64,000 nucleotides of DNA from Eledone cirrhosa. Taxonomy: Eukaryota. The position numbers and the translations under genes are program-made. Numbering within the stretch: position 1 is the stretch's first letter; each line of letters starts with the position of its first letter. Location of the stretch: contig OZ024765.1 of assembly GCA_964016885.1 (NCBI GenBank), positions 3,720,001 through 3,784,000 on the forward strand, given 5' to 3'. Positions 5,259 to 64,000 of the stretch are shown here, one piece after another. The notes under the pieces are model-generated. The model did no database searches, was not told the origin of the DNA, and saw nothing but the letters and a program-made list of their open reading frames with translations.

Positions 5259-5529
5259 ATTATATATATCATTGAATACTTCCAGTGTCACTACTCTGTC
5301 ATTTGAGGGATGTTTAGTCGCTACTTCTAGTATTTTTAACCGCTGAAGAGGTTTTTCATCAGTTTTGTAAGGTATTGTAGGGTAAACTGTTGAATATGGC
5401 ATATATTTGAGTGTTGTTTAACCACTAAAACTATCATTATTTATAATATTTCAGTGGCTGCCATTTCTAGCATTCAGTAGACTCTTCGTTTTGTTGTCTT
5501 TCATTTAGTTTACATATTGAGACCCACAT

Positions 5530-5623
5530 AATACACACACACACACATATATATATATATGTAAATACGTATATATATACATATATATACATACATACAT
5601 ATATATACATACATACATACATA

Positions 5624-5687
<64 letters not shown>

Positions 5688-5764
5688 CATACATATATAT
5701 AAGCAGACATACATATATATATGCATACATATATATAAACATATATATATACATATATATATAC

Positions 5765-5797
<33 letters not shown>

Positions 5798-5842
5798 GAT
5801 ACATATATATATATATATATACATACATATATATATATACAT

Positions 5843-5878
<36 letters not shown>

Positions 5879-5885
5879 GCATACA

Positions 5886-5920
<35 letters not shown>

Positions 5921-6043
5921 GTATATACATACATATATATATATACATACATTCATATATATCTATATATATATACATACATTCATATATATCTATATAT
6001 ACATATATATATACATACATATATATATATATGTGTGTGTGTG
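5530..6043. repeat. Compound (TA)n/(TACA)n microsatellite; second copy at 13075-13570
   Basis: Direct reading; the same compound pattern recurs in the second macro-unit. Confidence 0.95.
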
Positions 6044-6044
6044 A

Positions 6045-9000: not shown

Positions 9001-11930
9001 TAGGCTGACCAAGATACTCTCATGGAATGACCAAATGAGGTTTATTTTTCAATTGCACAGCTCTAGCATCACTCCTTCGTAGGCTGTCCAAGATACTCTC
9101 ATGGAATGACCAAATGAGGTTTATTTTTCAACATGCAAGATTTCACAGCTCTAGCATCACTCCTTCATAGGCCGACCAAGATACCCTCATGGAATGACCA
9201 AATGAGGTTTATTTTTCAACATGCAAGATTGCACAGCTCTAGCATCACTCCTTTGTAGGCTGTCCAAAATACTCTCATGGAATGACCAAATGTGGTTTAT
9301 TTTTCAACATGCAAGATTTCACAGCTCTAGCATCACTCCTTCATAGGCTGACCAAGATACTCTCATGGAATGACCAAATGAGGTTTATTTTTCAACATGA
9401 AAGATTTCACAGCTCTAGCATCACTCCTTCATAGGCTGACCAAGATACTCTCATGGAATGACCAAATGAGGTTTATTTTTCAATTGCACAGCTCTAGCAT
9501 CACTCCTTTGTAGGCTGTCCAAGATACTCTCATGGAATGACCAAATGAGGTTTATTTTTCAACATGCAAGATTTCACAGCTCTAGCATCACTCCTTCATA
9601 GGCTGACCAAGATACTCTCATGGAATGACCAAATGAGGTTTATTTTTCAACATGCAAGATTTCACAGCTCTAGCATCACTCCTTCATAGGCTGACCAAGA
9701 TACCCTCATGGAATGACCAAATGAGGTTTATTTTTCAACATGCAAGATTTCACAACTCTAGCATCACTCCTTCATAGGCTGACCAAGATACCCTCATGGA
9801 ATGACCAAATGAGGTTTATTTTTCAACATGCAAGATTTCACAGCTCTAGCATCACTCCTTCATAGGCTGACCAAGATACTCTCATGGAATGACCAAATGA
9901 CGTTTATTTTTCAATTACACAGCTCTAGCATCACTCCTTTGTAGGCTGTCCAAGATACTCTCATGGAATGACCAAATGAGGTTTATTTTTCAACATGCAA
10001 GATTTCACAGCTCTAGCATCACTCCTTCATAGGCTGACCAAGATACTCTCATGGAATGACCAAATTAGGTTTATTTTTCAACATGCAAGGTTTCACAGCT
10101 CTAGCATCACTCCTTCATAGGCTGACCAAGATACCCTCATGGAATGACCAAATGAGGTTTATTTTTCAACATGCAAGATTTCACAACTCTAGCATCACTC
10201 CTTCATAGGCTGACCAAGATACCCTCATGGAATGACCAAATGAGGTTTATTTTTCAACATGCAAGATTTCACAGCTCTAGCATCACTCCTTCATAGGCTG
10301 ACCAAGATACTCTCATGGAATGACCAAATGAGGTTTATTTTTCAATTGCACAGCTCTAGCATCACTCCTTCGTAGGCTGTCCAAGATACTCTCATGGAAT
10401 GACCAAATGAGGTTTATTTTTCAACATGCAAGATTTCACAGCTCTAGCATCACTCCTTCATAGGCCGACCAAGATACCCTCATGGAATGACCAAATGAGG
10501 TTTATTTTTCAACATGCAAGATTGCACAGCTCTAGCATCACTCCTTTGTAGGCTGTCCAAAATACTCTCATGGAATGACCAAATGTGGTTTATTTTTCAA
10601 CATGCAAGATTTCACAGCTCTAGCATCACTCCTTCATAGGCTGACCAAGATACTCTCATGGAATGACCAAATGAGGTTTATTTTTCAACATGAAAGATTT
10701 CACAGCTCTAGCATCACTCCTTCATAGGCTGACCAAGATACTCTCATGGAATGACCAAATGAGGTTTATTTTTCAATTGCACAGCTCTAGCATCACTCCT
10801 TTGTAGGCTGTCCAAGATACTCTCATGGAATGACCAAATGAGGTTTATTTTTCAACATGCAAGATTTCACAGCTCTAGCATCACTCCTTCATAGGCTGAC
10901 CAAGATACTCTCATGGAATGACCAAATGAGGTTTATTTTTCAACATGCAAGATTTCACAGCTCTAGCATCACTCCTTCATAGGCTGACCAAGATACCCTC
11001 ATGGAATGACCAAATGAGGTTTATTTTTCAACATGCAAGATTTCACAACTCTAGCATCACTCCTTCATAGGCTGACCAAGATACCCTCATGGAATGACCA
11101 AATGAGGTTTATTTTTCAACATGCAAGATTTCACAGCTCTAGCATCACTCCTTCATAGGCTGACCAAGATACTCTCATGGAATGACCAAATGACGTTTAT
11201 TTTTCAATTGCACAGCTCTAGCATCACTCCTTTGTAGGCTGTCCAAGATACTCTCATGGAATGACCAAATGAGGTTTATTTTTCAACATGCAAGATTTCA
11301 CAGCTCTAGCATCACTCCTTCATAGGCTGACCAAGATACTCTCATGGAATGACCAAATTAGGTTTATTTTTCAACATGCAAGGTTTCACAGCTCTAGCAT
11401 CACTCCTTCATAGGCTGACCAAGATACCCTCATGGAATGACCAAATGAGGTTTATTTTTCAACATGCAAGATTTCACAACTCTAACATCACTCCTTCATA
11501 GGCTGACCAAGATACCCTCATGGAATGACCAAATGAGGTTTATTTTTCAACATGCAAGATTTCACAGCTCTAGCATCACTCCTTCATAGGCTGACCAAGA
11601 TACTCTCATGGAATGACCAAATGAGGTTTATTTTTCAATTGCACAGCTCTAGCATCACTCCTTCGTAGGCTGACCAAGATACTCTCATGGAATGACCAAA
11701 TGAGGTTTATTTTTCAACATGCAAGATTTCACAGCCCTAGCATCACTCCTTCATAGGCTGACCAAGATACTCTCATCGAATGACCAAATGACGTTTATTT
11801 CTCAACATGCAAAATTTCACAGCTCTAGCGTCACTCCTTCATAGGCTGACCAAGATACTCTCATGGAATGATCAAATGAGGTTTATTTTTCAACATGCAA
11901 GATTTCACAGCCCTAGCATCACTCCTTCAT
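6045..11930 (+). repeat. 88-bp satellite array 2 (~68 monomers) with higher-order repeat
   Basis: Same monomer. A 79-bp deletion variant recurs every 431 bp and diagnostic SNPs recur every 1293 bp. Confidence 0.97.
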
Positions 11931-12803
11931 AGTGAGCCTATGAACTTTTAAGCCTACCTTCGTATATGTAAACAATGTATTTATTTAATATACAAATAAT
12001 TACTAAGAAATTCGAAATAATTTTTGCACCCATTTTTGCGATTAAGTAAAGACGGAGTTATCGTTCTTGAGATTTCGGCTCGGTGAAAATTGAGGAACTG
12101 ATGTCGCTAAATCGCCAAATCATTTACCTGCCCCATTGCACCATGGGAGGGTAATGGCTGCCCTTTATTTTTTAAACGATGGCAGATTCTTTAGTTTCTA
12201 TCGCAGCATCTTCTTCCTTGTTTCATATAAGTAAATAAGTAAAACATTTTGGCGAGAAAGATATTAAAAGGTCTTCTGTAGTTTAAAAAAAATAAAAGGC
12301 AGCCATTACCATCCCATGGTGCAACGGGGCAGATAAATGATTTGGCGATTTAGCGACATCAGTTTCTAAAATTTCTCCAAGCCGAAATCTCAAGAACGAT
12401 AACTCCTTCTTTACTTAATCGCAAAAATGGGTGCAAAAATTATTTCGAATTTCTTAGTAATTATTTGTATATTAAATAAATACATTGTTTACATATACGA
12501 AGGTAGGCTTAAAAGTTCATAGGCTCACTATGAAGGAGTGATGCTAGGGCTGTGAAATCTTGCATGTTGAAAAATAAACCTCATTTGCTCATTCCATGAG
12601 AGTATCTTGGTCAACCTATGAAGGAGTGATGCTAGAGCTGTGAAATCCTGCATGTTGAAAAATAAACCTCATTTGGTCAATCCATGAGAATATCTTGGTC
12701 AGCCTATGAAGGAGTGATACTAGAGCTGTGAAATCTCGCATGTTGAAAAATAAACCTCATTGTGTCATTCCATGAGAGTAACCTGGTCAGCCTACCTTCG
12801 TAT
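11930..12803. repeat. Palindrome core 2 (spacer 12178-12280) plus ~3 inverted monomers ending in the MITE TIR
   Basis: Same arms and spacer as core 1, with a few substitutions. Confidence 0.95.
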
Positions 12804-13168
12804 ATTATATATATCATTGAATACTTCCAGTGTCACTACTCTGTCATTTGAGGGATGTTTAGTCGCTATTTCTAGTATTTTTAACCGCTGAAGAGGTTTT
12901 TCATCAGTTTTGTAAGGTATTGTAGGGTAAACTGTTGAATATGGCATATATTTGAGTGTTGTTTAACCACTAAAACTATCATTATTTATAATATTTCAGT
13001 GGCTGCCATTTCTAGCATTCAGTAGACTCTTCGTTTTGTTGTCTTTCATTTAGTTTACATATTGAGACCCACATAATACACACACACACATATATATATA
13101 TATATGTAAATACGTATATATATACATATATATACATACATACATATATATACATACATACATACATA

Positions 13169-13232
<64 letters not shown>

Positions 13233-13315
13233 CATACATATATATAAGCAGACATACATATATATATGCATACATACATATATATAAACATATATATATA
13301 CATATATATATATAC

Positions 13316-13350
<35 letters not shown>

Positions 13351-13436
13351 GATACATATATATATATATATAGATATATATACATACATATATATATATA
13401 CATATATATATATACATATATATATATATGCATACA

Positions 13437-13471
<35 letters not shown>

Positions 13472-13571
13472 GTATATACATACATATATATATATATACA
13501 TACATTCATATATATCTATATATACATATATATATACATACATATATATATATATATATATGTGTGTGTGA

Positions 13572-15647
13572 ATAGGCTGACCAAGATATTCTCATGGAAT
13601 GACCAAATGAGGTTTATTTTTCAACATGCAAGATTTCACAGCTCTAGCATCACTCCTTCATAGGCTGACCAAGATACTCTCATGGAATGACCAAATGAGG
13701 TTTATTTTTCAACATGCAAGATTGCACAGCTCTAGCATCACTCCTTCGTAGGCTGTCCAAGATACTCTCATGGAATGACCAAATGTGGTTTATTTTTCAA
13801 CATGCAAGATTTCACAGCTCTAGCATCACTCCTTCATAGGCTGACCAAGATACTCTCATGGAATGACCAAATGAGGTTTATTTTTCAATTGCACAGCTCT
13901 AGCATCACTCCTTCGTAGGCTGTCCAAGATACTCTCATGGAATGACCAAATGAGGTTTATTTTTCAGCATGCAAGATTTCACAGCTCTAGCATCACTCCT
14001 TCATAGGCCGACCAAGATACCCTCATGGAATGACCAAATGAGGTTTATTTTTCAACATGAAAGATTTCACAGCTCTAGCATCACTCCTTCATAGGCTGAC
14101 CAAGATACTCTCATGGAATGACCAAATGAGGTTTATTTTTCAATTGCACAGCTCTAGCATGACTCCTTCGTAGGCTGTCCAAGATACTCTCATGGAATGA
14201 CCAAATGAGGTTTATTTTTCAACATGCAAGATTTCACAGCCCTAGCATCACTCCTTCATAGGCCGACCAAGATACTCTCATGGAATGACCAAATGACGTT
14301 TATTTCTCAACATGCAAGATTTCACAGCTCTAGCGTCACTCCTTCATAGGCTGACCAAGATACTCTCATAGAATGACCAAATGAGGTTTATTTTTCAACA
14401 TGCAAGATTTCACAGCTCTAGCATCACTCCTTCATAGACTGACCAAGATACTCTCATGGAATGACCAAATGACGTTTATTTCTCAACATGCAAGATTTCA
14501 CAGCTCTAGCATCACTCCTTCATAGGCTGACCAAGATACTCTCATGGAATGACCAAATGAGGTTAATTTTTCAACATGCAAGATTGCACAGCTCTAGCAT
14601 CATTCCTTCATAGGCAGACCAAGATATTCTCATGGAATGACCAAATGAGGTTTATTTTTCAACATGCAAGATTACACAGCTCTAGCATCACTCCTTCATA
14701 GGCTGACCAAGATACTCTCATGGAATGACCAAATGAGGTTTATTTTTCAACATGCAAGATTTCACAGCCCTAGCATCATTCCTTCATAGGCAGACCAAGA
14801 TATTCTCATGGAATGACCAAATGAGGTTTATTTTTCAACATGCAAGATTTCACAGCCCTAGCATCACTCCTTCATAGTGAGCCTATGAACATTTAAGCCT
14901 ACCTTCGTATATGTAAACAATGTATTTATTTAATATACAAACAATTAATTACTAAGAAATTCGAAATAATTTTTGTACCCATTTTTGCGATTAAGTAAAG
15001 ACGGAGTTATCGTTCTTGAGATTTCGGCTCGGTGAAATTTGAGGAACTGATGTCGCTAAATCGCCAAATCATTTACCTGCCCCGTTGCACCATGGGAGGG
15101 TAATGGCTGCCCTTTATTTTTTAAACGATGGCAGATTCTTTAGTTTCTATCGCAGCATCTTCTTCCTTGTTTCATATAAGTAAATAAGTAAAACATTTTG
15201 GCGAGAAAGATATTAAAAGGTCTTCTGTGGTTTAAAAAAAATAAAAGGCAGCCATTACCCTCCCATGGTGCAACGGGGCAGATAAATGATTTGGCGATTT
15301 AGCGACATCAGTTCCTAAAATTTCTCCAAGCCGAAATCTCAAGAACGATAACTCCGTCTTTACTTAATCGCAAAAATGGGTGCAAAAATTATTTCGAATT
15401 TCTTACTAATTAATTATTTGTATATTAAATAAATACATTGTTTACATATACGAAGGTAGGCTTAAAAGTTCATAGGCTCACTATGAAGGAGTGATGCTAG
15501 GGCTGTGAAATCTTGCATGTTGAGAAATAAACCTCATTTGATCATTCCATGAGAGTATCTTGGTCAGCCTATGAAGGAGTGATGCTAGAGCTGTGAAATC
15601 TTGCAAGTTGAAAAATAAACCTCATTTGGTCATTCCATGAGAGTATC
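13572..15647. repeat. Satellite array 3 (~15 monomers), palindrome core 3 (spacer 15127-15229) and 2 inverted monomers
   Basis: Third copy of the same architecture, truncated at 15647. Confidence 0.95.
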
Positions 15648-39519: not shown

Positions 39520-41112
39520 TCAAGGTTCACATTTAATAATGACCTTATCTGCTGTGTGCGTTTGTTGATGTCGTTTTAAGTCAGTGTTAGTTATAAAAGA
39601 TTTCTCACATATTCCACAATGGTGTGGTCTCTCTCCCGTATGGATTCGTTTGTGTTTAGTTAAGTTGCTGTTAGTGACAAACGATTTCCCACAAATATCA
39701 CAATCAAATGGTTTCTCTCCGGTGTGGCTCCGTATATGCTCAACCAGATTCGAATTTTGGGTGAAAGATTTCCCACAAAATTCACAGTGAATCAGGTTCT
39801 CGCCTGTATGTGCTTTTTTGTGTTTCAGGAAATATCCATTTGACGCAAACGAGTCCCCACATATTTCACAATAGTAAGGTTTCTCTCCGGTATGTATCCT
39901 CATGTGAGTTGTCAGGTCACAGTTTAAGACGAAAGATTTCTCACATATTTCGCACTGGTAAGGTTTATCTCCAGTGTGTCTCCGAATATGAACAACGAGG
40001 TTAGAATTATTGTTAAACGATTTACCACATATTTCACACTCGTGCAATTTTTCTGTATTGTGTGTGGTTTTATGGCTTGTTAAACTGCTATTAGAAACAA
40101 AAGACTTTCCACAAACTTCACAATAGAACGGCATGATACCAGCATGTCTCCTTAAGTGTATAGTCAAAGCACTGTTATTTATAAAAGAATTACCACAGAT
40201 ATCACAACTATACGGTCTTTCTCCGGTGTGACTGCGTATATGTTTAACGAGAGTCGACTTTTGACTAAAACATTTCTCACATATTTGACAAGAATAAGGT
40301 TTTTCCCCGGTATGTGTCCTTTTGTGGATAATAAGATGGGCCTTCCCAATAAACGATTTTCCACATTCGTCGCAAGGAAGTAATTTATCTCCAGTGTGAA
40401 TTCTCCTGTGTGTTGATAAGCTACTGTTGGTAACAAAAGACTTACCACATATTTCACAAAAATACGGTTTGTCACCAGTGTGTGTTCGTTTGTGGTTTGT
40501 TAATATACCATTGGAGACGAAAGACTTACCACAGATATCACAATTGAACGGCTTTTCTCCAGTGTGACTACGTATGTGTTCAACGAGATTCGAATTCTGA
40601 GTAAAAGATTTGCCACATGTTTCACAGGGAAAAGGTTTTTCCCCTGTATGGGTTTTCTTATGACTTGTTAAATAATAAATATCCGAGAACGATTTTCCAC
40701 ATATTTCACAATGACACATTTTCTCTCCAGTGTGAATTCTCCTATGTCTGGTTAGATTATGGTTATAAGCAAAAGATTTTCCACATATTTCACACCAATG
40801 GGCTTTTTCCCCGGTATGTGTCCTTTCGTGTGCAGCTAATCTACACTTGTGGATAAAAGATTTGCTACATATTTCACAGGTGAAAAGTTTCTCACTCTTG
40901 TGTGTTTCTTTGTGTGTGATGACTTCATCTTCTGAAGAGAAAGTTTTCTTACAAATCTCACAACAATATTCAGGAATATTTCCGTGTAACGATGTTTGTT
41001 CAGTAAACGTTTCATTAGATAAAGGTTTCTCATCACTGTATGTCTGTGTAACAGTATTTATATTGTTAAGCACAGTTGTGTTAGAAATGTCCAACTGTTT
41101 AACATCCTCCAT
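39520..41112 (-). CDS. C2H2 zinc-finger protein, subfamily B (530 aa, 17 fingers)
   Basis: Intact ORF with tandem fingers and MEDVKQL N-terminus. Confidence 0.95.
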   Translation of the reverse strand: MEDVKQLDISNTTVLNNINTVTQTYSDEKPLSNETFTEQTSLHGNIPEYCCEICKKTFSSEDEVITHKETHKSEKLFTCEICSKSFIHKCRLAAHERTHTGEKAHWCEICGKSFAYNHNLTRHRRIHTGEKMCHCEICGKSFSDIYYLTSHKKTHTGEKPFPCETCGKSFTQNSNLVEHIRSHTGEKPFNCDICGKSFVSNGILTNHKRTHTGDKPYFCEICGKSFVTNSSLSTHRRIHTGDKLLPCDECGKSFIGKAHLIIHKRTHTGEKPYSCQICEKCFSQKSTLVKHIRSHTGERPYSCDICGNSFINNSALTIHLRRHAGIMPFYCEVCGKSFVSNSSLTSHKTTHNTEKLHECEICGKSFNNNSNLVVHIRRHTGDKPYQCEICEKSFVLNCDLTTHMRIHTGEKPYYCEICGDSFASNGYFLKHKKAHTGENLIHCEFCGKSFTQNSNLVEHIRSHTGEKPFDCDICGKSFVTNSNLTKHKRIHTGERPHHCGICEKSFITNTDLKRHQQTHTADKVIIKCEP

Positions 41113-41129: not shown

Positions 41130-41382
41130 ATCTGTAATTATAATATATTATAGTTCAGTTTCTTGTCTTAAATATCCTGGGACTCTGTTTACACGATATA
41201 ATTAGATTATCTGTAATTATAATATATTATAGTTTAGTTTCTTGTGTAGATATCTTGGGACTCTGTTTACACGATATAATTAGATTAGATGTAATTACAA
41301 TATATTATAGTTCAGTTTCCTGTCTTAGATAGTCTGGGACTCTGTTTACATCATATGATTAGATTAGATGTAATTATAAAAA
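41130..41382 (-). repeat. 79-bp tandem repeat at the putative splice acceptor of subfamily B genes (also 50295-50430, 52640-52855, 57958-58160, 62882-63003)
   Basis: Period 79 from starts at 52641, 52720 and 52799. The last unit ends aattacag|ataattctcggaaattactATG. Confidence 0.85.
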
Positions 41383-46104: not shown

Positions 46105-46965
46105 ATTTATATAAGATTTCTCAAGGTACACAGTTTAAAGTCTTCCCTCCAATGCGTATATATTGGTAGACAATATATTTAGATTTACAGAAAGATTTCT
46201 CAAGGTTCCCAGTTTAAAGTCTTCCCTCCAATGTGTACATCTTGGTAGACAATATATTTAGATTTAACCCTTTAGCATTTAAACTTGCCGTATCTGGGCA
46301 GAATTCTCTCACCTCTTTCTCTTCAAAGCGACCATAACTGGCCGCTCGTACTTATGTTAAGGTATTGTTCTCAAAATAAATGACACCAAAATCTCATAGA
46401 TTTGATATGCAAAATAATTATGTGAGATAAAGTCTATACCACAAAAATACAATAGTATATATAAAGGGTTAAATAAGAAAGATTTCTTAAGGTTCACAGT
46501 TTAAAGTCTTCTCTCCAGTGTGTACATGTTGGTAGACAAGATATTTAGATTTACACAAGAAAGATTTCTCAAGGTTCACAGTTTAAAGTTTTCCCTCCAA
46601 TGTGTACATGTTGGTAGACAAGATATTTAGATTTACACAAGAAAGATTTCTCAAGGTTCAGTTTAAAGTCTTCCCTCCAGTGTGTACATGTTGGTAGACA
46701 AGATATTTAGATTTACACAAGAAAGATTTCTCAAGGTTCACAGTTTAACCCTTTAGTGTTCAAACCGGCCAGAATTCTCTACCTATTTCTGTTGAAACTG
46801 GCTGTAACTGGTCGCTCAAACTGATGTTAAGGTATTGTTCTCAAAATAAATTCTTTCAAAATCTCATAGATTCGATATTATGTGAGGTAAAGCCTTTACC
46901 ATGAAAATATAATAGTATATATAAAATAATGTGAATGCTAAAGGGTTAGTCTTCCCTCCAATGTT
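46105..46965 (-). repeat. ~82-bp degenerate zinc-finger repeat, interrupted by two MITEs
   Basis: Reverse complement of the 54405-54910 repeat. Confidence 0.8.
46264..46472 (+). mobile_element. piggyBac-like MITE (TTAA-CCCTTTA..TAAAGGG-TTAA); second copy 46745-46948
   Basis: Short TIRs with TTAA flanks; the two copies are colinear. Confidence 0.75.
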
Positions 46966-48390: not shown

Positions 48391-50274
48391 TCAAGTGTGT
48401 GTTATTTTATGTGACTTCAGATGAATTTTCTGTATGAAAGATTTTCCACATGTTTCACAGTCAAAACGTTTTTCTCGGGTGTGTGTTACTTTGTGAGTTT
48501 TGAGATGAGCGTTTTGTATGAAAGATTTCCCACATATTTCACAGGAAAAAGGTTTTTCTCCTGTGTGTGTCCTTTTATGTAATTTTAACACACCATTAGT
48601 GACAAATGATTTCCCACATACTTCACAATGATGGAGGTTTTCACCAGTATGTTTTCTGTTGTGTAGTGTCAATTCACTTTTGGTGTAAAATAATTTTTCA
48701 CATACTTCACAACGGAAGAGTTTTTCTCCAGTGTGACGAAGTTTATGAGCAGCAAGTTGAGAAGTATCGGTGAAATATTTCCCACATATTTCACAATGAC
48801 AACATTTCTCTCCAGTGTGTGTTCTTTTATGTTTAGTTAAACTACCATTTTCAGCAAAAGTTTTGCCACATATTTCACAATGGCAGGGTTTCTCTCCAGT
48901 GTGTGTCCGTTTGTGAATTCTTAAACTACTGCTAGTGAACAGTGATTTCCCACATATTTCACAGTGAAACGGTTTCTCTCCAGTATGAATACGCTTGTGT
49001 GCAACAAGGTTCGAATTACTAACAAAATGTTTCCCGCATATTTCACAATGAAACAGGTTGTCGCCAGTGTGAATTCTTTTGTGCGTTGATAAATTACTGC
49101 TACACACAAAATATTTACCACATATCTCACAGTGGTAAGGTTTCTCTCCAGTGTGTGTGCGTTTGTGTTTTTTTAGCTTATCATTAGTAACATAACACAT
49201 TCCACATATATTACAGCGGTAAGGTTTCTCTCCAGTGTGTATTTTTATGTGTCTGCTTAAATAACAGTTCTGGGCAAAACATTTTCCACATATCTCACAG
49301 CGGAAAGGTTTCTCGCCAGTGTGACTACGTATATGGATAACAAGTCTGGAATTATTAATAAAAGATTTCCCACATATCACACACTGTAATAGATCTCCAG
49401 TGTGTGTTTTTTTGTGAGATGTTAAATAACTGTTACTGGAAAAATACTCCCCACATATGTCACAGCGGTAAGGTTTCTCTCCAGTATGTGTACGTCTGTG
49501 GATAACAAGAGTTGAATAAGCAACAAGACATTTGCCACATATCTCGCAATGAAATAGACCTTCTCCAGTATGTGTTCTTTTATGTTTTGTTAAATAGTCG
49601 TTACTAGAAAAAGATTTGCCACATATTTTACAGTGGAAAAGTTTCTCTCCAGTATGTGTTCTTTTGTGTGATTTCAAAATACCTTTCAGGATAAAAGATT
49701 TTCCACATATTTCACATTGGAAGGGTTTTTCTCCAGTGTGTGTACTTATATGTGTTGTTAAATTATAACGTGAAAGAAAACGGTTCCCACATATTTCACA
49801 ATGAAATGGTTTCTCTCCTGTGTGCGTTCTTTTGTGTTTTGTTAAATTACTGCTACTGGTAAAAGATTTGCCACATATTTCACAGTGGTGACGTTTCTTT
49901 CCAGCGTGAATACGTCTGTGGATAACAACATCCGAATCAGAAAGAAAACATTTCCCACATATTCCACAGTGGTAAGTGTGTATTCTTTTGTGTTGTGTTA
50001 AATATTTCTTACGGGCAAAAGATTTGCCACAAATTTCACAGTCGAAAGGTTTCTCACTCTTGTGTGTTTCTTTGTGTGTGATGACTTCATCTTCTGAAGA
50101 GAAAGTTTTCTTACAAATCTCACAACAATATTCAGGAATATTTCCGTGTAACGATGTTTGTTCAGTAAACGTTTCATTAGATAAAGGTTTCTCATCACTG
50201 TATGTCTGTGTAACTGTATCTATATTGTTAAACACAGTTGTGTTAGAAATGTCCAACTGTTTAACATCCCCCAT
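48391..50274 (-). CDS. C2H2 zinc-finger protein, subfamily B (627 aa, 21 fingers)
   Basis: Intact ORF; decayed finger sequence continues past the stop. Confidence 0.95.
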   Translation of the reverse strand: MGDVKQLDISNTTVFNNIDTVTQTYSDEKPLSNETFTEQTSLHGNIPEYCCEICKKTFSSEDEVITHKETHKSEKPFDCEICGKSFARKKYLTQHKRIHTYHCGICGKCFLSDSDVVIHRRIHAGKKRHHCEICGKSFTSSSNLTKHKRTHTGEKPFHCEICGNRFLSRYNLTTHISTHTGEKPFQCEICGKSFILKGILKSHKRTHTGEKLFHCKICGKSFSSNDYLTKHKRTHTGEGLFHCEICGKCLVAYSTLVIHRRTHTGEKPYRCDICGEYFSSNSYLTSHKKTHTGDLLQCVICGKSFINNSRLVIHIRSHTGEKPFRCEICGKCFAQNCYLSRHIKIHTGEKPYRCNICGMCYVTNDKLKKHKRTHTGEKPYHCEICGKYFVCSSNLSTHKRIHTGDNLFHCEICGKHFVSNSNLVAHKRIHTGEKPFHCEICGKSLFTSSSLRIHKRTHTGEKPCHCEICGKTFAENGSLTKHKRTHTGEKCCHCEICGKYFTDTSQLAAHKLRHTGEKLFRCEVCEKLFYTKSELTLHNRKHTGENLHHCEVCGKSFVTNGVLKLHKRTHTGEKPFSCEICGKSFIQNAHLKTHKVTHTREKRFDCETCGKSFIQKIHLKSHKITHT

Positions 50275-52873: not shown

Positions 52874-54385
52874 ATGGAGGATGTTAAACAGTTGGAAACT
52901 TTTACTGAACAAACATCGTTACACGGAAATATTCCTGAATATTGTTGTAAGATTTGTAAGAAAACTTTCACTTCAGAAGATGAAGTAATCACACACAAAG
53001 AAACACACAAGAGTGAGAAACCTTTACACTGTGAAATTTGTGGCAAATTTTTCAGTTATAATTCCAAACTAGTCCTCCACAAAAGAATACACACTGGAGA
53101 AAAACTATTTCGGTGTGAAATATGTGGTAAATCTTTCACGCAAAAATCAAGTCTTGTGGTTCACAAACGGAGACACACTGGAGAGAAACCATTTCATTGT
53201 GAAATATGTGGGGAGTCATTCTTTAATAATTCTTGTCTTGTTATCCACGTACGTAGTCACACTGGGGAAAAACCATTCCACTGTGAAATTTGTGGGAAAT
53301 CTTTTACCTCTAAAAGTATTTTAATCATTCACAAAAAAAGACATGCGGGAGAGAAAAGTTTTCGTTGTGAGACATGTGGGAAATCTTTCGTTACTAATGC
53401 TGAATTAACAAAGCACAACAGAAGACACACTGGAGAAAACCGCTTTCATTGTGAAATATGTGGGGAGTTTTTTCTCGATAGCAGTAATTTAATAACTCAC
53501 AAAAGAATCCATACTGGAGAAAAACCTTTTCACTGTGAAATTTGTGGTAAATCTTTCACTCAACACACTCATCTCGTCATCCATAGACGTAGTCACACGG
53601 GAGAGAAACCTTATCAGTGTGAATTATGTGGGAAATCTTTTGTTTTTAGTACATCGCTTGTTATCCATAGACGTACACACACAGGAGAGAAACCATTTCA
53701 CTGTGAAATATGTGGGAACCGTTTCCTTTCACGTTATAATTTAACAACACATATAAGTACACACACTGGAGAAAAACCCTTCCAATGTGAAATATGTGGA
53801 AAATATTTTGTGTGTAGCGGTAACTTATCAGCACATAAAAGAATTCACACTGGTATCAACCTGTTTTATTGTGAAATTTGTGGGAAATCTTGTGTTACAA
53901 ATTCAAATCTTGTTGCACACAAGCGTATTCATACCGGAGAGAAACCATTTCACTGTGAAATATGTGGAAAATCCCTTTTCACTAGCAGTAGTTTAAGACA
54001 ACATAAAATGTCACACACTGGGGAGAAACCATTTCATTGTGAAGAATGTGGCAAATCTTATGTTACTAATTCAACTCTTGTTGCTCACAAGCGTATTCAT
54101 ACTGGGGAGCAACAATTCCACTGTAAAATATGTGGGAAATCACTTTTGAGCAGCAGTAGTTTAAGACAACACATAAGTATACACACAGGAGAGAAACCAT
54201 TTCATTGTGAAGTGTGTGGGAAATCTTTCAGCACTAATGATAGGTTAAAATTACATACAAGTACACACACTGGAGAAAAGCCCTACCACTGTGACATTTG
54301 TGGACAGTCTTTTGTCAGAAACGATCGTTTAACAAAACACAGAAAAATCCATGCCAGGGAAAGTCCGTTATATTGTGAAATATAA
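52874..54385 (+). CDS. C2H2 zinc-finger protein, subfamily B (503 aa, 17 fingers; 26-aa N-terminal deletion)
   Basis: Intact ORF. Confidence 0.95.
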   Translation: MEDVKQLETFTEQTSLHGNIPEYCCKICKKTFTSEDEVITHKETHKSEKPLHCEICGKFFSYNSKLVLHKRIHTGEKLFRCEICGKSFTQKSSLVVHKRRHTGEKPFHCEICGESFFNNSCLVIHVRSHTGEKPFHCEICGKSFTSKSILIIHKKRHAGEKSFRCETCGKSFVTNAELTKHNRRHTGENRFHCEICGEFFLDSSNLITHKRIHTGEKPFHCEICGKSFTQHTHLVIHRRSHTGEKPYQCELCGKSFVFSTSLVIHRRTHTGEKPFHCEICGNRFLSRYNLTTHISTHTGEKPFQCEICGKYFVCSGNLSAHKRIHTGINLFYCEICGKSCVTNSNLVAHKRIHTGEKPFHCEICGKSLFTSSSLRQHKMSHTGEKPFHCEECGKSYVTNSTLVAHKRIHTGEQQFHCKICGKSLLSSSSLRQHISIHTGEKPFHCEVCGKSFSTNDRLKLHTSTHTGEKPYHCDICGQSFVRNDRLTKHRKIHARESPLYCEI

Positions 54386-54404
54386 CATTAGTAGCGTGTT
54401 AAAA

Positions 54405-54910
54405 TATACACACTGGAGAGAAGACTTTAAACTGTAGACATTAAGAAATCTTTATTGTGTAAATCTAAATATATTGTCTACCATCATGTACAGACTGGAG
54501 GGAAGACTTTAAACTGTGAACCTTGAGAAATATTGCTTGTGTAAATCTAAATATATTGTCTACTAACATGTACAGACTGGAGGGAAGACTTTAAACTGTG
54601 AACCTTGAGAAATATTTCTTGTGTAAATCTAAATATATTGTCTACTAACATGTACACACTGGAGGGAAGACTTTACTCTGTGAGCCTTAAGAAATATTTC
54701 TTGTGTAAATCTAAATATATTGTCTACTAACATGTACACACTGGAGGGAAGACTTTACTCTATGAGCCTTAAGAAATATTTCTTGTGTAAATCTAAATAT
54801 ATTGTCTACTAACATGTACACACTAGAGGAAGACTTTAAACTGTGAACCTTAAGAAATCTTTCTTATGTTAATCTAAATATATTGTCTTACCAACATGTA
54901 CACAATGGAG
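54405..54910 (+). repeat. 82-bp degenerate zinc-finger repeat in putative 3' UTR (~6 copies; ~5 copies at 59700-60122)
   Basis: Unit contains cacactggagggaagactttaaactgtgaaccttga (HTGGKTLNCEP-stop). Period 82 from starts at 54488 and 54570. Confidence 0.85.
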
Positions 54911-55484: not shown

Positions 55485-56640
55485 TTAATAATGATAATAA
55501 TAATAAAATTGTGTACAGTGCTCAGGTGCACTACAACTCATCAAAGGTGTGTGTATAGTACATAGAGTAGTGTACAAATGTCAGGAAAGTGATCAGTGTA
55601 TGAGTCATGATATACATGTCTGCATATGTATGGAGGTTTTATAGGATGCAGTGTCTCAGCAGCTAATAACTAATGCAGGTTTTAAGGGATGCAGTGTCTC
55701 GGCAGGTAGTTTGTTCCATGGAGGTTTTAAAGGATGCAGTGTCTTGACAGCTAACAACTGATGCAGGTAGTTTGTTCCATGGAGGTTTTAAAGGATGCAG
55801 TGTCTCGACAGCTAACAACTAATGCAGGTAGTTTGTTCCATGGAGGTTTTAAAGGATGCAGTGTCTCGACAGCTAACAACTGCTGCAGGTAGTTTGTTCC
55901 ATGGAGGTTTTAAAGGATGCAGTGTCTTGACAGCTAACAACTGCTGCAGGTAGTTTGTTCCATGGAGGTTTTAAAGGATGCAGTGTCTCGACAGCTAACA
56001 ACTAATGCAGGTAGTTTGTTCCATGGAGGTTTTAAAGGATGCAGTGTCTCGACAGCTAACAACTGATGCAGGTAGTTTGTTCCATGGAGGTTTTAAAGGA
56101 TGCAGGTAGCTTATTTCATGCTTCAGCAACTCTGAGGTTTTCCTCAATTTCACCAGTTCCATTCTCCTCTCTGTTTATCAAAGGTGTAGTAGGATGGTAT
56201 TGTATTTGTCTATACAGTAAAGTTTGTGCAAAGCCTTGAGTTCTATAAAGTTTTTAAAAATGTTAGCAAAGTTGTCTTTCATGTTGCTATGGCTTGTTGG
56301 ACTGTAAAATACTCTCTTGTGATGCTAAAGTCTGCCAGTTGTAGATTGCTCATCAACACGAGATATTTTTCTCCACAAAGTTTGATCACCAACAGCAGAG
56401 ATCAAGTCCGTTCCATAAGTTGACATTATCAAGCCATCATTTTGACTGCCGGCCTCCGTTTCTCTTACCAGCCAACCTTTTTTCAAGGAATATATATCTT
56501 TCGATCACCAGCAGCAGACTTTAAAGAGCAAAGATCAATAGATTGACATTATCAAGCCATAGATTTGGCTGCCTGCCTCTGCTTCTCTAACCAGCCAACC
56601 TTCCTTCCAGGCATAACCTACTCACACCATGAGTTGATCT
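55485..56640 (-). mobile_element. CR1/L2-like LINE 3' end with 61-bp tandem array (55630-56105); duplicate at 60685-61560 has fewer units
   Basis: Minus-strand WNKLPASVVSCRDTASFKTS motif and (TTA)n tail. Period 61 from starts at 55720 and 55781. Confidence 0.7.
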
Positions 56641-58180
56641 TTTTATATGACTATATAGTTTAAGTACTCTTGACTTGACAATTGATGTAATTTGTCTAAG
56701 TCTGGTAACGTTGAGCAGCTCACTGAGCCACTTGAAAACACTTTATAACAAAATATTGCTTAATAAATTTATCTTTCTTTCTGTAAATAAACTTTTCAGT
56801 GTTCTTAATTTTTCTGGCATAAATAAAACCAGCGACATATTTAAATAAATGTATTGTTTTAATAGACACCCTACTTTATAGTTATCTTCATAATCTACAT
56901 CTGTTTTATCAACACCATATGTAAACCTCCATTGCCCCCCAACTAAACGAAGAGCTATCCCAGAGATGTTTAGTCTTGGTTGTTAGACTGTCGAGAATAA
57001 GGGTCACTCTGATATCAAAACCTGGGTAGATGAGACTCCTTTGTCACTTAGGTGACAACCTTTCAAGTAACCAACAACTTTAGCTTGGTGATAAAGGGGG
57101 ACAACTGTGACTTGGTAGCCAGCTTCCGGTTAATATTCAGGTGAGGATTAGGGACTCATCAACGTTATTTTTTTTTAACCTGAGGAGAAACATGGACATT
57201 CAACAACATATAGGTGAACATTGATGCAATTGTCCATAGACCCTGACCCTCAGCAGTGAGTGTGGGGTCTATCATCATCATCATCATGTAATGATATCAC
57301 ACAGGGAGTATTTTAAATACATTCAACGTAAACATTTCTTTGTAATTTAAAATGTTGAAAATTTCTGTCACACTTCGTTGATTTAAAAAAGTGAAATATT
57401 AGAATATTTGAGAATCTGAAAGTTATAAGAGTTACTTCTAGTTCTGATGGTGTCGTTGACTCCCTAACGTAAAGTAAGGCTAATACTTTCAATTAAAACT
57501 TAATCACAGAGAAAATCAAAGAAAGAAATTGATTAATTATCGATCTCATTACCTAATTGGTTATTGCCAATGTTCCAGATTCTGTTAAAAAGACATTCCA
57601 ACCATGATCATCAGGTATATTTTGTATATCTAAACTAAAATAAATAACGTCCAATGTGTTCTTCATTTAATAAGATTTTAGGCTGAAATTTGAGGGATCA
57701 TTTAACTGCTATTTCTAGCACGTTCAGACCCCTGTATAGCCATCCTACATGATACTTATTAGTAGTTATTTTGATAGCTAATGTATATTAAGTTATTTAC
57801 CATGGGTTGGATACAATTCAAGATGTTTCCGAATGTATTAAAATATCGCAGGATATTATTTTGATATGACACCGGTATTGTTCAGTAGAGGGAAATATTT
57901 TCAACGTAACCAGGAACATGTTATCTTTTAAAATTTGGTTTAATCCAGTTATGTATAGAGAGTCCCAGGCTATCTAAGACAGGAAACTGAACAATAATAT
58001 ATTATAATTACATCTAATCTAATTATATCGTGTAAACAGAGTCCCAGGATATCTAGGACAAGAAACTAAACTATAATATATTATAATCTAATTATATCGT
58101 GTAAACAGAGTCTCAGGATATTTAAGACAAGAAACTGAACTATTTTAGATTATAATTACAGATAATTCTCGGAAATTACT

Positions 58181-59680
58181 ATGGAGGATGTTAAACAGTT
58201 GGACATTTCTAACACAACTGTGTTTAACAATATCGATACAGTTACACAGACATACAGTGATGAGAAACCTTTATCTAATGAAACGTTTACTGAACAAACA
58301 TCGTTACACGGAAATATTCCTGAATATTGTTGTGAGATTTGTAAGAAAACTTTCTCTTCAGAAGATGAAGTCATCACACACAAAGAAACACACAAGAGTG
58401 AGAAACTTTTCGACTGTGAAATTTGTGGCAAATCTTTTGCCAGTAAGAAATATTTAACACAACACAAAAGAACACACACTGGAGAGAAACCTTACCACTG
58501 TGGAATATGTGGGAAATCTTTTGTTTTTAATTCAGCACTTGTTATCCACAAATGTAGTCACACTGGAGAAATATTCTGTGAAATATGTGGAAAATCTTTT
58601 GGCAGTAATGATCATTTAAAAAGACACATAAGAACACATACTGGAGAGGAACCATACCACTGTGAGATATGTGGCAAATCTTTTGCCCGTAATGGTCATT
58701 TAAAAATACACATAAGAACACATACTGGAGAGGAACCTTACCACTGTGAGATATGTGGCAAATCTTTTGCCAGTAAGAAATATTTCAGGAAACACAAAAG
58801 ATCACACACTGGAGAAGATCGATTTCATTGTGAAATATGTGGGAAATGTTTTGTTTCTAATTCGGATCTTGTTATCCACAGACGTATTCACACTGGAGAG
58901 AAACGTCACCACTGTGAAATATGTGGCAAATCTTTTGCCAGTAACAGTAATTTAACAAAACATAAAAGAACGCACACAGGAGAGAAACCATTCCATTGTG
59001 AAATATGTGGGAACCGTTTCCTTTCACATTATAATTTAACAACACATATAAGTACACACACTGGAGAAAAACCCTTCCAATGTGAAATATGTGGAAAATA
59101 TTTTGTGTGTAGCGGTAATTTATCAGCACATAAAAGAATTCACACTGGTAACAACCTGTTTTATTGTGAAATTTGTGGGAAATCTTGTGTTACAAATTCA
59201 ACTCTTGTTGCACACAAGCGTATTCATACCGGAGAGAAACCATTTCACTGTGAAATATGTGGAAAATCCCTTTTCACTAGCAGTAGTTTAAGACAACATA
59301 AAAGGTCACACACTGGGGAGAAACCATTTCATTGTGAAGAATGTGGCAAATCTTATGTTACTAATTCAACTCTTGTTGCTCACAAGCGTATTCATACTGG
59401 GGAGCAACAATTCCACTGTAAAATATGTGGGAAATCACTTTTGAGCAGCAGTAGTTTAAGACAACACATAAGTATACACACAGGAGAGAAACCATTTCAT
59501 TGTGAAGTGTGTGGGAAATCTTTCAGCACTAATGATAGGTTAAAATTACATACAAGTACACACACTGGAGAAAAGCCCTACCACTGTGACATTTGTGGAC
59601 AGTCTTTTGTCAGAAACGATCGTTTAACAAAACACAGAAAAATCCATGCCAGGGAAAGTCCGTTATATTGTGAAATATAA
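58181..59680 (+). CDS. C2H2 zinc-finger protein, subfamily B (499 aa, 16 fingers)
   Basis: Intact ORF. Confidence 0.95.
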   Translation: MEDVKQLDISNTTVFNNIDTVTQTYSDEKPLSNETFTEQTSLHGNIPEYCCEICKKTFSSEDEVITHKETHKSEKLFDCEICGKSFASKKYLTQHKRTHTGEKPYHCGICGKSFVFNSALVIHKCSHTGEIFCEICGKSFGSNDHLKRHIRTHTGEEPYHCEICGKSFARNGHLKIHIRTHTGEEPYHCEICGKSFASKKYFRKHKRSHTGEDRFHCEICGKCFVSNSDLVIHRRIHTGEKRHHCEICGKSFASNSNLTKHKRTHTGEKPFHCEICGNRFLSHYNLTTHISTHTGEKPFQCEICGKYFVCSGNLSAHKRIHTGNNLFYCEICGKSCVTNSTLVAHKRIHTGEKPFHCEICGKSLFTSSSLRQHKRSHTGEKPFHCEECGKSYVTNSTLVAHKRIHTGEQQFHCKICGKSLLSSSSLRQHISIHTGEKPFHCEVCGKSFSTNDRLKLHTSTHTGEKPYHCDICGQSFVRNDRLTKHRKIHARESPLYCEI

Positions 59681-62600
59681 CATTAGTAGCGTGTTAAAAT
59701 ATACACACTGGAGAGAAGACTTTAAACTGTAGACATTAAGAAATCTTTATTGTGTAAATCTCAATATATTGTCTACCATCATGTACAGACTGGAGGGAAG
59801 ACTTTAAACTGTGAACCTTGAGAAATATTTCTTGTGTAAATCTAAATATATTGTCTACTAACATGTACACACTGGAGGGAAGACTTTACTCTGTGAGCCT
59901 TAAGAAATATTTCTTGTGTAAATCTAAATATATTGTCTACTAACATGTACACACTGGAGGAAGACTTTAAACTGTGAACCTTAAGAAATCTTTCTTATGT
60001 TAATCTAAATATATTGTCTACTAACATGTACACACTGGAGGGAAGACTTTAAACTGTGAACCTTAAGAAATCTTTCTTATGTTAATCTAAATATATTGTC
60101 TTACTAACATGTACACAATGGAGAATATTTATCATAGTGAAATATGTTAGAAATCATTCTCTGTTAATTTTCATCTTGTAGTCTACAAATGTGATCTCAT
60201 TTGAGAGAAACCTTTTCACTAAAATATTTGGGAAATCCTTATTTGTGGTATATAAACTTGTTGATAAATGTATATACACTGGACATTGATGCACAGGGGC
60301 CCTCTATCTTTATTAGTATCCTAAAGTGAAAACACTCGTGCAGTCCTGCATGTATATCCTACCTGGTGTTGCTGCTTTATGGATTTCAAAATACCGTATT
60401 TCCCAGTGCTGAAGGTGCTTCGATCCTCGATGATGAACCCTAATTTTGACAACCAAAAATTTGAAACAACCTTCGGCCTCCAGGACACACGGTAGATTTT
60501 TGAGACTTAATTTAGGAAAAAGTAGCATCTTCAACGCTGGGAAATATGGCAGTTTTCTACTGGCTTTCCTCGTTCCATTCGCTTCTCTGTTCATCAAAGG
60601 TGTAGTAGGATGGTATTTATCCATACAGTAGAGTATGTGCAAAGCTGCCAGTTCTATAAATTTTTTTTTAAATGCTAGCAAAGTTAATAATAATAATAAT
60701 AAAATTATTGTGTACAGTGCTCAGGTGCACTACAACTCATCAAAGGTGCATGTATAGAACATAGAGTAATGTACAAATGTCAGGAAAGTGAACAGTATAT
60801 GAGTCATGATATACATGTCTGCATATGTATGGAGGTGGGTTATTAGGTGTAGTGTTGGTGAATTTCGGGAAGCATGGAGGTTTTATAGGATGCAGTGTTA
60901 CAGCAACTAATAACTAATGTAGGTAGTTTGTTCCATGGAGGTTTTAAAGGATGCAGTGTCTCAGGAGCTAAGAACTAATGCAGGTAGTTTGTTCCATGGA
61001 GGTTTTAAAGGATGCAGGTAGTTTATTCCATGCTTCAGCAACTCTGAGGTTTTCCTCAATTTCACCAGTTCCATTCTCCTCTCTGTTTATCAAAGGTGTA
61101 GTAAGGATGGTATTGTATTTGTCTATACAGTAAAGTTTGTGCAAAGCCTTGAGTTCTATAAAGTTTTAAAAAATGCTAGCAAAGTTGTCTTTCATGTTGC
61201 TATGGCTTGGACTGTAAAATACTCTCTCTTGTGATGCTAAAGTCTGCCAGTTGTAGATTGCTCATCAACACGAGATATTTTTCTCCACAAAGTTTGATCA
61301 CCAACAGCAGAGTTTAAAGAGCAGAGATCAAGTCCGTTCCATAGGTTGACATTATCAAGCCATCATTTTGACTGCGGGCATCTGCTTCTCTTACCAGCCA
61401 ACATTTTTTCAAGGAATATATATCTTTCGATCACCAGCAGCAGACTTTAAAGAGCAAAGATCAATAGATTGACATTATCAAGCCATGGATTTGGCTGCCG
61501 GCCTCTGCTTCTCTAACCAGCCAACCTTCCTTCCAGGCATAACCTACTCACACCATGAGTTGATCTTTTTATATGACTATATAGTTTAAGTACTCTTGAC
61601 TTGACAATTGATGTAATTTGTCTAAGTCTGGTAACGTTGAGCAGCTCACTGAGCCACTTGAAAACACTTTATAACAAAATATTGCTTAATAAATTTATCT
61701 TTCTTTCTGTAAATAAACTTTTCAGTGTTCTTAATTTTTCTGGCATAAATAAAACCAGCGACATATTTAAATAAATGTCTTGTTTTAATAGACACCCTAC
61801 TTTATAGTTATCTTCATAATCTACATCTGTTTTATCAACACCATATGTAAACCTCCATTGCCCCCCAACTAAACGAAGAGCTATCCCAGAGATGTTTAGT
61901 CTTGGTTGTTAGACTGTCTAGAATAAGGGTCACTCTGATATCAAAACCTGGGTAGATGAGACTCCTTTGTCACTTAGGTGACAACCTTTCAAGTAACCAA
62001 CAACTTTAGCTTGGTGATAAAGGGGGACAACTGTGACTTGGTAGCCAGCTTCCGGTTAATATTCAGGTGAGGATTAGGGACTCATCAACGTTATTTTTTT
62101 TTAACCTGAGGAGAAACATGGACATTCAGCAACATATAGGTGAACATTGATGCAATTGTCCATAGACCCCCGACCCTCAGCAGTGAGTGTGGGGTCTCTC
62201 ATCATCATCATCATGTAATGATATCACACAGGAAGTATTTTAAATACATTCAACGTAAACATTTCTTTGTAATTTAAAATGTTGAAAATTTCTGTCACAC
62301 TTCGTTGATTTAAAAAAGTGAAATATTAGAATATTTGAGAATCTGAAAGTTATAAGAGTTACTTCTAGTTCTGATGGTGTCGTTGACTCCCTAACGTAAA
62401 ATAAGGCTAATACTTTCAATTAAAACTTAATCACAGAGAAAATCAAAGAAAGAAATTGATTAATTATCGATCTCATTACCTAATTGGTTACTGCCAATGT
62501 TCCAGATTCTGTTAAAAAGACATTCCAACCATGACTATCAGGTATATTTTGTATATCTAAACTAAAATAATTAACGCCCAATGTGTTCTTCATTTAATAA

Positions 62601-63023
62601 GATGTTAGGCTGAAATTTGAGGGATCATTTAACTGCTATTTCTAGCACGTTCAGACCCCTGTATAACCATCCTACATGATACATATTAGTAGTTATTTTG
62701 ATAGCTAATGTATATTAAGTTATTTACCATGGGTTGGATACAATTCAAGATGTTTCCGAATGTATTAAAATATCGCAGGATATTATTTTGATATGACACC
62801 GGTATTGTTCAGTAGAGGGAAATATTTTCAACGTAACCAGGAACATGTTATCTTTTAAAATTTGGTTTAATCCAGTTATGTAAACAGAGTCCCAGGCTAT
62901 CTAAGACAAAAATCTGAACTATAATATATTATAATTACTTCTAATATAATTATATCGTGTAAACAGAGTCCCAGAAACTGAATTATAATATATTATAATC
63001 AGAGATAATTCTCGAGAATTACT

Positions 63024-64000
63024 ATGGAGGACGTTAAACAGTTGGACATTTCTAACACAAATCTGTTTCACAATATAGATACAGTTACACAGACATACAG
63101 TGGTGAGAAACCTTTATCTAATGAAACGTTTACTGAACAAACATCGTTACACGAAAATATTCCTGAATACTGTTGTGAGATTTGTAAAAAAACTTTCTCT
63201 TCAGAAGATGAAGTCATCACACACAAAGAAACACACAAGAGTGAAAAGGCTTTTCTCTGTGAAATATGTGGCAAATATTTTGCCAGTAACAGTTATTTAA
63301 CGAAACACAAAGGAACACACACTGGAGAAGATCTATTTTATTGTGAGATATGTGGGAAATCTTTTATAAATAATTCAAAACTTGTTATCCACAGACGTAC
63401 ACACACTGGAGAGAAACCTTTTTACTGTGAAATATGTGGCAAATCTTTCATCTCCAGCAGTAATTTAACAACACACAAATTAGAACACACTGGAAAGAAA
63501 CCTTTCCATTGTAAAGTATGTGGGGAATCTTTTGTCACTAAAGGAGATTTAAGAAGGCACAAAAGAACACACTCTGGTAATTCTCGTCGTGTTAGCCATA
63601 AACGGAGTGATCCAGTAGAAAAGTTGTATGATTGTGAAATGTGTGGGAAATCATTTGGGTTGAAAGGTAGTTTTACAAGGCATCGAAGAATACACACTGG
63701 AATAAAACCCTTTAGCTGTGAAATATGTGCGATGTCTTTTATTGATAAATCTCATCTTGCTGCCCATAACATGAAACATACCGGAGAAAAACCTTTCAAA
63801 TGTGAAACGTGTGGTAAATCTTTTCAAACGAATGATCACTTAAAAAATCACATTCGAATACACACAGGAGAAAAAAATCGCCATTGTCAAATATGTGGGA
63901 GATCTTTTATTCAGCATACAAGTCTTGTTATTCACTTACGTAGTCACACTGGAGAAAAACCATATCATTGTGAAATGTGTGGGAAATCTTTCGTTTCAAA
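63024..64000 (+). CDS. C2H2 zinc-finger protein, subfamily B, partial (runs off window; at least 9 fingers)
   Basis: Absent from the ORF track. Manual translation from ATG 63024 (MEDVKQLDISNTNLFHN..) stays open to base 64000. Confidence 0.92.
   Translation, partial: MEDVKQLDISNTNLFHNIDTVTQTYSGEKPLSNETFTEQTSLHENIPEYCCEICKKTFSSEDEVITHKETHKSEKAFLCEICGKYFASNSYLTKHKGTHTGEDLFYCEICGKSFINNSKLVIHRRTHTGEKPFYCEICGKSFISSSNLTTHKLEHTGKKPFHCKVCGESFVTKGDLRRHKRTHSGNSRRVSHKRSDPVEKLYDCEMCGKSFGLKGSFTRHRRIHTGIKPFSCEICAMSFIDKSHLAAHNMKHTGEKPFKCETCGKSFQTNDHLKNHIRIHTGEKNRHCQICGRSFIQHTSLVIHLRSHTGEKPYHCEMCGKSFVS

Follow-up and report, generated by a model that had tools for sequence, protein, structure and literature searches.

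An apparently undescribed octopod zinc-finger subfamily signature: a mostly floppy leader and one conserved acidic finger

Cephalopods have some of the largest C2H2 zinc-finger repertoires. KRAB-ZNF and ZAD-ZNF proteins are recognised by domains of their own (in ZAD, the four-cysteine zf-AD). The KRAB context is also treated in PMC10547256. An earlier note on the DNA analysed here had proposed that a nearly invariant N-terminus of about 75 residues, shared by several neighbouring zinc-finger genes, was an effector of this kind, and the question was whether this head behaved as such a domain. The head was found not to be one domain: it consisted of a leader (residues 1-48) predicted to be mostly floppy and one conserved acidic finger.

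Head-bearing genes in the window, the genome, and Octopus

The window, i.e., the whole 64-kb stretch analysed (Eledone cirrhosa contig OZ024765.1, positions 3,720,001 to 3,784,000), contained seven intronless-looking C2H2 open reading frames (ORFs), five of which started with the head, each at the position first reported. The gene at 39520..41112 (minus strand) encoded 530 aa with 17 C2H2 fingers in a single open frame, and its head (M1 to K75) occupied 40888..41112 (minus). The remaining four heads, named below by the position of their start codon, were located as follows: (i) 50050..50274 (minus) in gene 48391-50274 (627 aa, 21 fingers), whose N-terminus was MGDV and not MEDV as the earlier note had it; (ii) 52874..53020 (plus) in gene 52874-54385 (503 aa, 17 fingers), in which residues 8-33 were deleted, 78 bp (26 codons) being missing in frame after MEDVKQL, with finger 1 retained but for two substitutions, much as originally described; (iii) 58181..58405 (plus) in gene 58181-59680 (499 aa, 16 fingers), whose array was a mosaic with blocks of 50274 and 52874; and (iv) 63024..63248 (plus) in a gene extending past the window end (483 aa in genomic copy L014), whose head had 5-7 differing positions. 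The four full heads shared 68-74 of 75 residues across the six pairs, and the near-identity initially noticed was thus real. The head had a net charge of -7. Pfam scans of head and whole protein found no named domain in the head except the finger, in agreement with the first impression, and sequence comparison supported its reading as an unnamed, family-wide feature.

Copies of the head were present at no fewer than 230 places in this genome (about 238, itself a lower bound obtained from four own-genome searches with at least 150 matches each, merged by hand), on 22 large contigs plus several small ones, and leader-only queries gave 410-423 first-look candidates. A total of 175 distinct heads were examined, 135 with at least five fingers in frame behind and 40 broken. 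Among the 135 long-ORF copies, 117 had all four ligands of finger 1 and an acidic helix (118 with the mis-cut row L142), three had a non-acidic helix, 13 were scored with a ligand missing or displaced (12 if L142 is set aside), and two were scored as having no finger 1, of which L151 was a true deletion. Finger 1 was not indispensable, because 12-13 of the 135 had lost or shifted a ligand and one had lost the finger; and many copies must be simply young, because 24 of the 40 broken ones still retained an intact finger 1. Dense family clusters were observed on contigs C27 (0.3-4.3 Mb), C26 (7.82-7.94 Mb), C6 (70.45-70.55 Mb), and C5 (74.66-74.82 Mb), and short or broken copies were numerous on C18, C28, C12, and C8.

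The profile search of proteins that the earlier note had suggested recovered the family in two Octopus species. Whole heads like those of this genome were found in five database proteins, three from O. bimaculoides and two from O. sinensis (XP_029652431.1, XP_029645730.2, XP_052833736.1, XP_014789413.1, and A0A0L8GTW0), under the automatic names 'zinc finger protein 239-like' or '664', several of these models looking truncated or frameshifted. Their leader identity was 43-57%, and their helix had the form SE(H/R)E(V/L)F; compared by region with this genome, identity was 0.95 in the core, 0.68 in the helix, 0.44 in the leader, and 0.43 at other finger-1 sites. A leader-only profile, which was built including these five proteins, picked out four proteins among 4574 candidates, all from Octopus. 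A search of 1.84 billion proteins was dominated by generic finger arrays, the whole head appearing in four of the best 150 matches listed; a single-sequence homolog search with residues 1-76 yielded six candidates, none of which scored; and the ESM Atlas returned generic small C2H2 clusters only, with recognition of the head below threshold. The head is probably older than the divergence of this lineage and Octopus. With more than 200 copies against five, the family seems much more expanded here than in annotated Octopus proteomes, a difference to which annotation gaps could add. A search of the accessible literature gave no description of this head and no papers on related concepts, although octopus families of this kind could be listed in the supplements of PMC10547256 and PMC12774644.

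A near-neutral leader and a constrained acidic finger

Residues 1-47 were predicted to be disordered, and an AlphaFold2 model built with 43 sequences gave pLDDT below 50 over most of residues 1-32, with no added strand or helix next to finger 1; the leader had no conserved Cys set. Selection was measured on 114 copies (137 loci minus 21 broken and two duplicates): codon models gave dN/dS of 0.64-0.71 for leader residues 2-48, a value to be read with the caveat that similarity to the head was itself the criterion by which copies were collected and that paralog trees are blurred by conversion. The observed value lay below all 18 neutral leader simulations (0.76-1.21), while among the 27 copies of less than 86% identity (hereinafter old copies) it was 0.82 and not significantly below neutrality (LRT 3.0). 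In these old copies, residues 12-48 had pN of 0.258, to be set beside pS of 0.216 in this segment and of 0.265 over the head as a whole, and they evolved about neutrally. Residues 22-41 gave dN/dS of 1.3-1.4. Subfamily estimates were mutually inconsistent: 24 copies like those of the window had leader dN/dS of 0.86 (not significant), while 29 copies like L043 had 0.40 in the leader (LRT 15.6) and 0.88 in finger 1.

Within the leader, residues 24-36 (41005..41043, minus) resembled the linker plus first-cysteine region of array fingers: 93 of the 114 leaders scored above 5 bits on a DNA profile, and none of the 114 did so in any of three controls. This segment is a decayed TGEKP linker and finger start lying within the near-neutral leader. 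The rear portion of the head, acidic finger included, recurred inside the array of copy L034 (at about position 215) and, in broken form, in the second match of L148; such recurrence may be expected from exchange through the relic linker.

The tip (residues 1-11; 41080..41112, minus) displayed modest constraint, with dN/dS of 0.39-0.41 (0.385 for residues 2-11, lower than the minimum window of every one of 60 simulations). However, tip and helix had an elevated pS (0.36, compared with 0.22 for residues 12-48), and pN alone was 0.196 at the tip and 0.198 at the helix versus 0.258, i.e., not significantly slower than at random non-core sites (p = 0.10 and 0.14, respectively).

Finger 1 (40900..40968, minus) was a classical C2H2 finger, C-x2-C-x12-H-x3-H with an aromatic core and a beta-beta-alpha fold, matching Pfam zf-C2H2_6 above cut-off; it was modelled as a normal finger whose helix (residues 61-74) was the only one of the head, and its rmsd to Zif268 fingers was about 0.5 A. 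PDB searches by sequence and by fold matched this finger and nothing else of the head. Its acidity, as first noticed, was far beyond chance: over helix positions -1 to +6, the 107 first fingers averaged a net charge of -2.5, and the 1449 array fingers averaged +0.56. The linker behind it was non-TGEKP in 106 of the 107, while 827 of the 1449 array fingers had a TGEKP linker, and the usual residues at -1, +3, and +6 were S, E, and T, with Glu at +1, so that neither the linker nor the base-contacting residues of DNA-reading C2H2 fingers were found. Because of the acidic helix and the non-TGEKP linker, finger 1 is likely not a DNA reader, in line with its suspected poor fit to DNA; acidic residues at +2/+3 are also present in a DNA-binding EGR1 finger, and we therefore infer, rather than observe, non-binding.

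Across the 114 copies, finger 1 as a whole had dN/dS of 0.52, with sharply different values by site class: 0.07 at the six ligand and core sites (0.13 in the 27 old copies), 0.50 in the helix, residues 59-66 (0.36 in the old copies, LRT 15.8), and 1.11 at the other nine sites (1.2 in the old copies). For these eight helix codons, F1X4 with simulations was used, and 0.36 was reached by none of 100 neutral simulations. The matching sites of finger 2 had 0.05 (core), 1.30 (helix), and 0.27-0.28 (others). With core pN of 0.027 versus pS of 0.26 in the old copies, the Cys, His, and aromatic core of finger 1 was under strong purifying selection.

Constraint on the acidic helix was moderate and lay mostly on Ser(-1) and Glu(+3): the least variable helix sites, S60 (pN 0.07) and E63 (pN 0.06), were the N-cap and N3 of the modelled helix, and 98 of the 107 first fingers had S/T(-1)xxE(+3), compared with 24 of the 1449 others. 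A capping box is abbreviated S/T-x-x-E, and acidic residues in the first turn are favourable to the helix dipole. The portion of PMC4515027 consulted describes this box as a stabilising motif with reciprocal N-cap/N3 bonds. S60 and E63 fit that pattern, finger 1 is likely stabilised in this way, and its acidic residues may mainly serve to stabilise the helix.

Young duplicates, shuffled fingers, and the 5′ flank

Summed over the six window pairs, which are not independent, pS and pN were 0.060 and 0.024 in the head, while they were 0.284 and 0.212 in finger 2. Synonymous and amino-acid differences thus jumped at one and the same boundary, and therefore finger 2 had a different history and not only a different constraint. 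The arrays were mosaics: fingers 9-16 of 58181 corresponded to fingers 10-17 of 52874 at 98-100% DNA identity, and fingers 1, 2, 7, and 8 of 58181 corresponded to fingers 1-4 of 50274 at 94-100%. The claim that the genes diverge at once from finger 2 onwards held for some pairs only, since finger 2 was common to 50274 and 58181 (97% DNA identity), as were the last eight fingers to 52874 and 58181 (98-100%). On the head's tree, codon tree length was 65 for finger 2 and 18-19 for the head. The near-invariance of the head in the window was mostly young age (recent duplication) combined with finger shuffling behind it.

Identity among the five genes continued 5′ of the ATG. A 79-bp repeat was present in all five genes, and a further stretch of ~300 bp in four; in gene 41112, this tandem repeat adjoined the ATG on its 5′ side (41133..41379, minus) and consisted of amplified sequence from the non-coding 5′ flank of the family. 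That flank was homologous among old copies: over 85 non-coding bases before the ATG, p-distance was 0.32 in 21 old copies, whose heads had pS of 0.27 and pN of 0.22. Two readings of the flank were not supported: (i) an origin as a decayed finger, since only one of 114 copies scored above 5 bits; and (ii) an upstream coding exon, since the AG at about -38 was absent from some copies and the stretch to the ATG contained stops and frame-breaking indels. In genomic sequence, head and array formed one frame, and a separate upstream coding exon is unlikely. A GTAAGT donor-like word together with the AG ~38 bases before the ATG suggested a short 5′-UTR intron in some old copies; this word lay ~100-150 bases before the ATG in L111, L113, L131, L132, L133, and L140 and was found within 200 bases of the ATG in only eight of the 27 old copies.

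Several other repeats were observed in the window. A 2.1-kb block (55961-58088 and 60873-63000, 96% identical) preceded genes 58181 and 63024 and marked a tandem duplication unit. An 82-bp satellite lay directly 3′ of two genes (54400-54910 and 59695-60123) and again near 46 kb (46113-46748); the two arrays tested scored 37-45 bits on the finger profile, pointing to a derivation from finger-coding DNA. A long array of ~88-bp units occupied 6045-11932 and 13572-15647, with a 2.4-kb duplication around it (4983-7368 and 12528-14877, 94%). A second ZNF family had an unrelated METNLCK-type leader that closed with a cysteine-free half finger. No more than four copies of it were found in the genome (16805-18298 and 27802-28788 of the window, both minus, plus L146 and L147); they were 91-100% identical and lay close to the head family's clusters on C26.

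Readings of the head and known systems

The reading preferred here, with a probability of roughly 0.58, is that the head is the inherited 5′ end of the family, a predicted-disordered and largely neutral leader plus a conserved acidic finger that would not read DNA. Whole genes duplicate with head and 5′ flank included, as the homologous flanks show; the 84-bp fingers behind the head are then exchanged between and within genes, as seen in the mosaic arrays; and the head, a unique sequence bordering the array, would probably be left out of this exchange, because of which it looks frozen beside finger 2. Selection keeps finger 1 folded, as evident at its Cys, His, and aromatic core, and the finger would most likely serve at the array start as a cap or a weak protein contact, not in sequence recognition. 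The weaker point is that the leader was not wholly neutral, and low dN/dS at tip and helix would also come from an effector surface.

That last observation leads to a possible but rather doubtful alternative, namely that octopods evolved a KRAB/FiNZ/ZAD counterpart from zinc-finger parts: the 11-residue tip and the acidic surface of a docking finger 1 would recruit a corepressor or pair proteins (a silencing or dimer partner), and fingers 2 onwards would target repeats. The head indeed stands family-wide at the N-terminus of more than 200 fast-diversifying arrays, was kept in two species of Octopus, where the helix was better preserved than the leader, and in 52874 lost only the part between tip and finger 1; its negative charge recalls FiNZ and KRAB, which are glutamate-rich according to the part of PMC10547256 seen, and single N-terminal C2H2 fingers can dimerise according to that of PMC12774644. 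However, the low dN/dS was partly raised pS and pN alone was not significant, no added strand or helix was predicted beside the finger, the head had no exon of its own and shared the open frame of the array, tip residues or ligands were lost in some intact copies, and the two best-kept helix sites were accounted for by the capping box.

At the opposite extreme, the head would be a functionless passenger between start codon and array, kept alike by duplication and gene conversion. The near-neutral linker, the homologous non-coding flank, the equal likeness of the unrelated METNLCK-type leader among its four copies, and the intact finger 1 in 24 of 40 broken copies all suit this idea, but for finger 1 it was already weakened by the roughly tenfold gap between core pN and pS in old copies and by the retention of all four ligands in four of five Octopus proteins, whose leaders were only 44% identical; the relic finger at residues 24-36 offers, within this very head, an example of decay for comparison. 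We regard it as improbable. More improbable still is that finger 1 contacts nucleic acid, whether by binding RNA or by serving all members as a shared, fixed anchor: the canonical, Zif268-like fold, D(+2)E(+3) as in EGR1, and a weak zf-C2H2_jaz score below cut-off would agree with this, while the helix charge, the non-TGEKP linker, Glu at +1, and the fact that Arg, Lys, Asn, Gln, and His were not usual at -1, +3, and +6 argue against it.

Comparison with known systems placed the head close to several without equating it with any. FiNZ of cyprinid FZNF genes is described in the text of PMC10547256 available to us as a highly conserved 28-aa sequence on its own exon, and the same text names octopus as one of the species whose ZNFs are poorly characterised and mentions dozens of uncharacterised families. 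Like FiNZ, the head was a short, acidic, lineage-restricted N-terminal sequence common to hundreds of tandem C2H2 genes, with no named-domain match; unlike FiNZ, it lay in the frame of the array, was mostly weakly constrained (leader dN/dS 0.64-0.82, with pN about equal to pS in residues 12-48, and hence without strong conservation outside the finger), and its conserved part was itself a zinc finger. With KRAB-ZNF and ZAD-ZNF genes, it had in common a fixed N-terminal part, a variable finger array, and a birth-and-death family, but it had no Pfam match to KRAB (PF01352) or zf-AD (PF07776) and no predicted folded leader. Single first C2H2 fingers of the CGx-phi/IMZF type can dimerise through an added strand, and one IMZF-like domain is predicted in O. 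bimaculoides (A0A0L8FQ77), both as given in the accessible part of PMC12774644; the head similarly began its protein with an atypical C2H2 finger that may be a unit of protein contact, but it had no CGx-phi motif and no predicted added beta-strand, and its finger 1 adjoined the array instead of being isolated. PRDM9-type arrays of 84-bp fingers turn over under concerted evolution (PMC4874674, seen in part); the present arrays likewise had fast turnover of 84-bp units and variable positions -1, 2, 3, and 6, but these frames contained no SET or KRAB part, and exchange also occurred between paralogous genes. For cephalopod C2H2 expansions, no accessory domain was named in the portions at hand of PMC12513265 (no occurrence of 'N-terminal' or 'motif') and PMC9068888 (no occurrence of 'KRAB' or 'N-terminal').

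The earlier note had held two findings to be fatal to its own proposal, synonymous sites as conserved as non-synonymous ones and restriction of the module to a few recent paralogs; the former was seen in the linker, while the latter was not, the module being far more widespread. Its invariant 75-aa effector was overstated: the leader was predicted unfolded, its middle 37 residues had pN close to pS, part of it was a decayed finger, and the invariance in the window was mostly young age; the part of interest is finger 1 plus the first 11 residues. The head is a real and apparently undescribed signature of an octopod ZNF subfamily and provides a clean marker for its more than 200 copies, and the effector question narrows to residues 1-11 and finger 1, two small patches. 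If these patches recruit a partner, they would give a first cephalopod answer on how such arrays act on chromatin; if not, they would warn against taking every conserved N-terminus in front of shuffling fingers for an effector domain.
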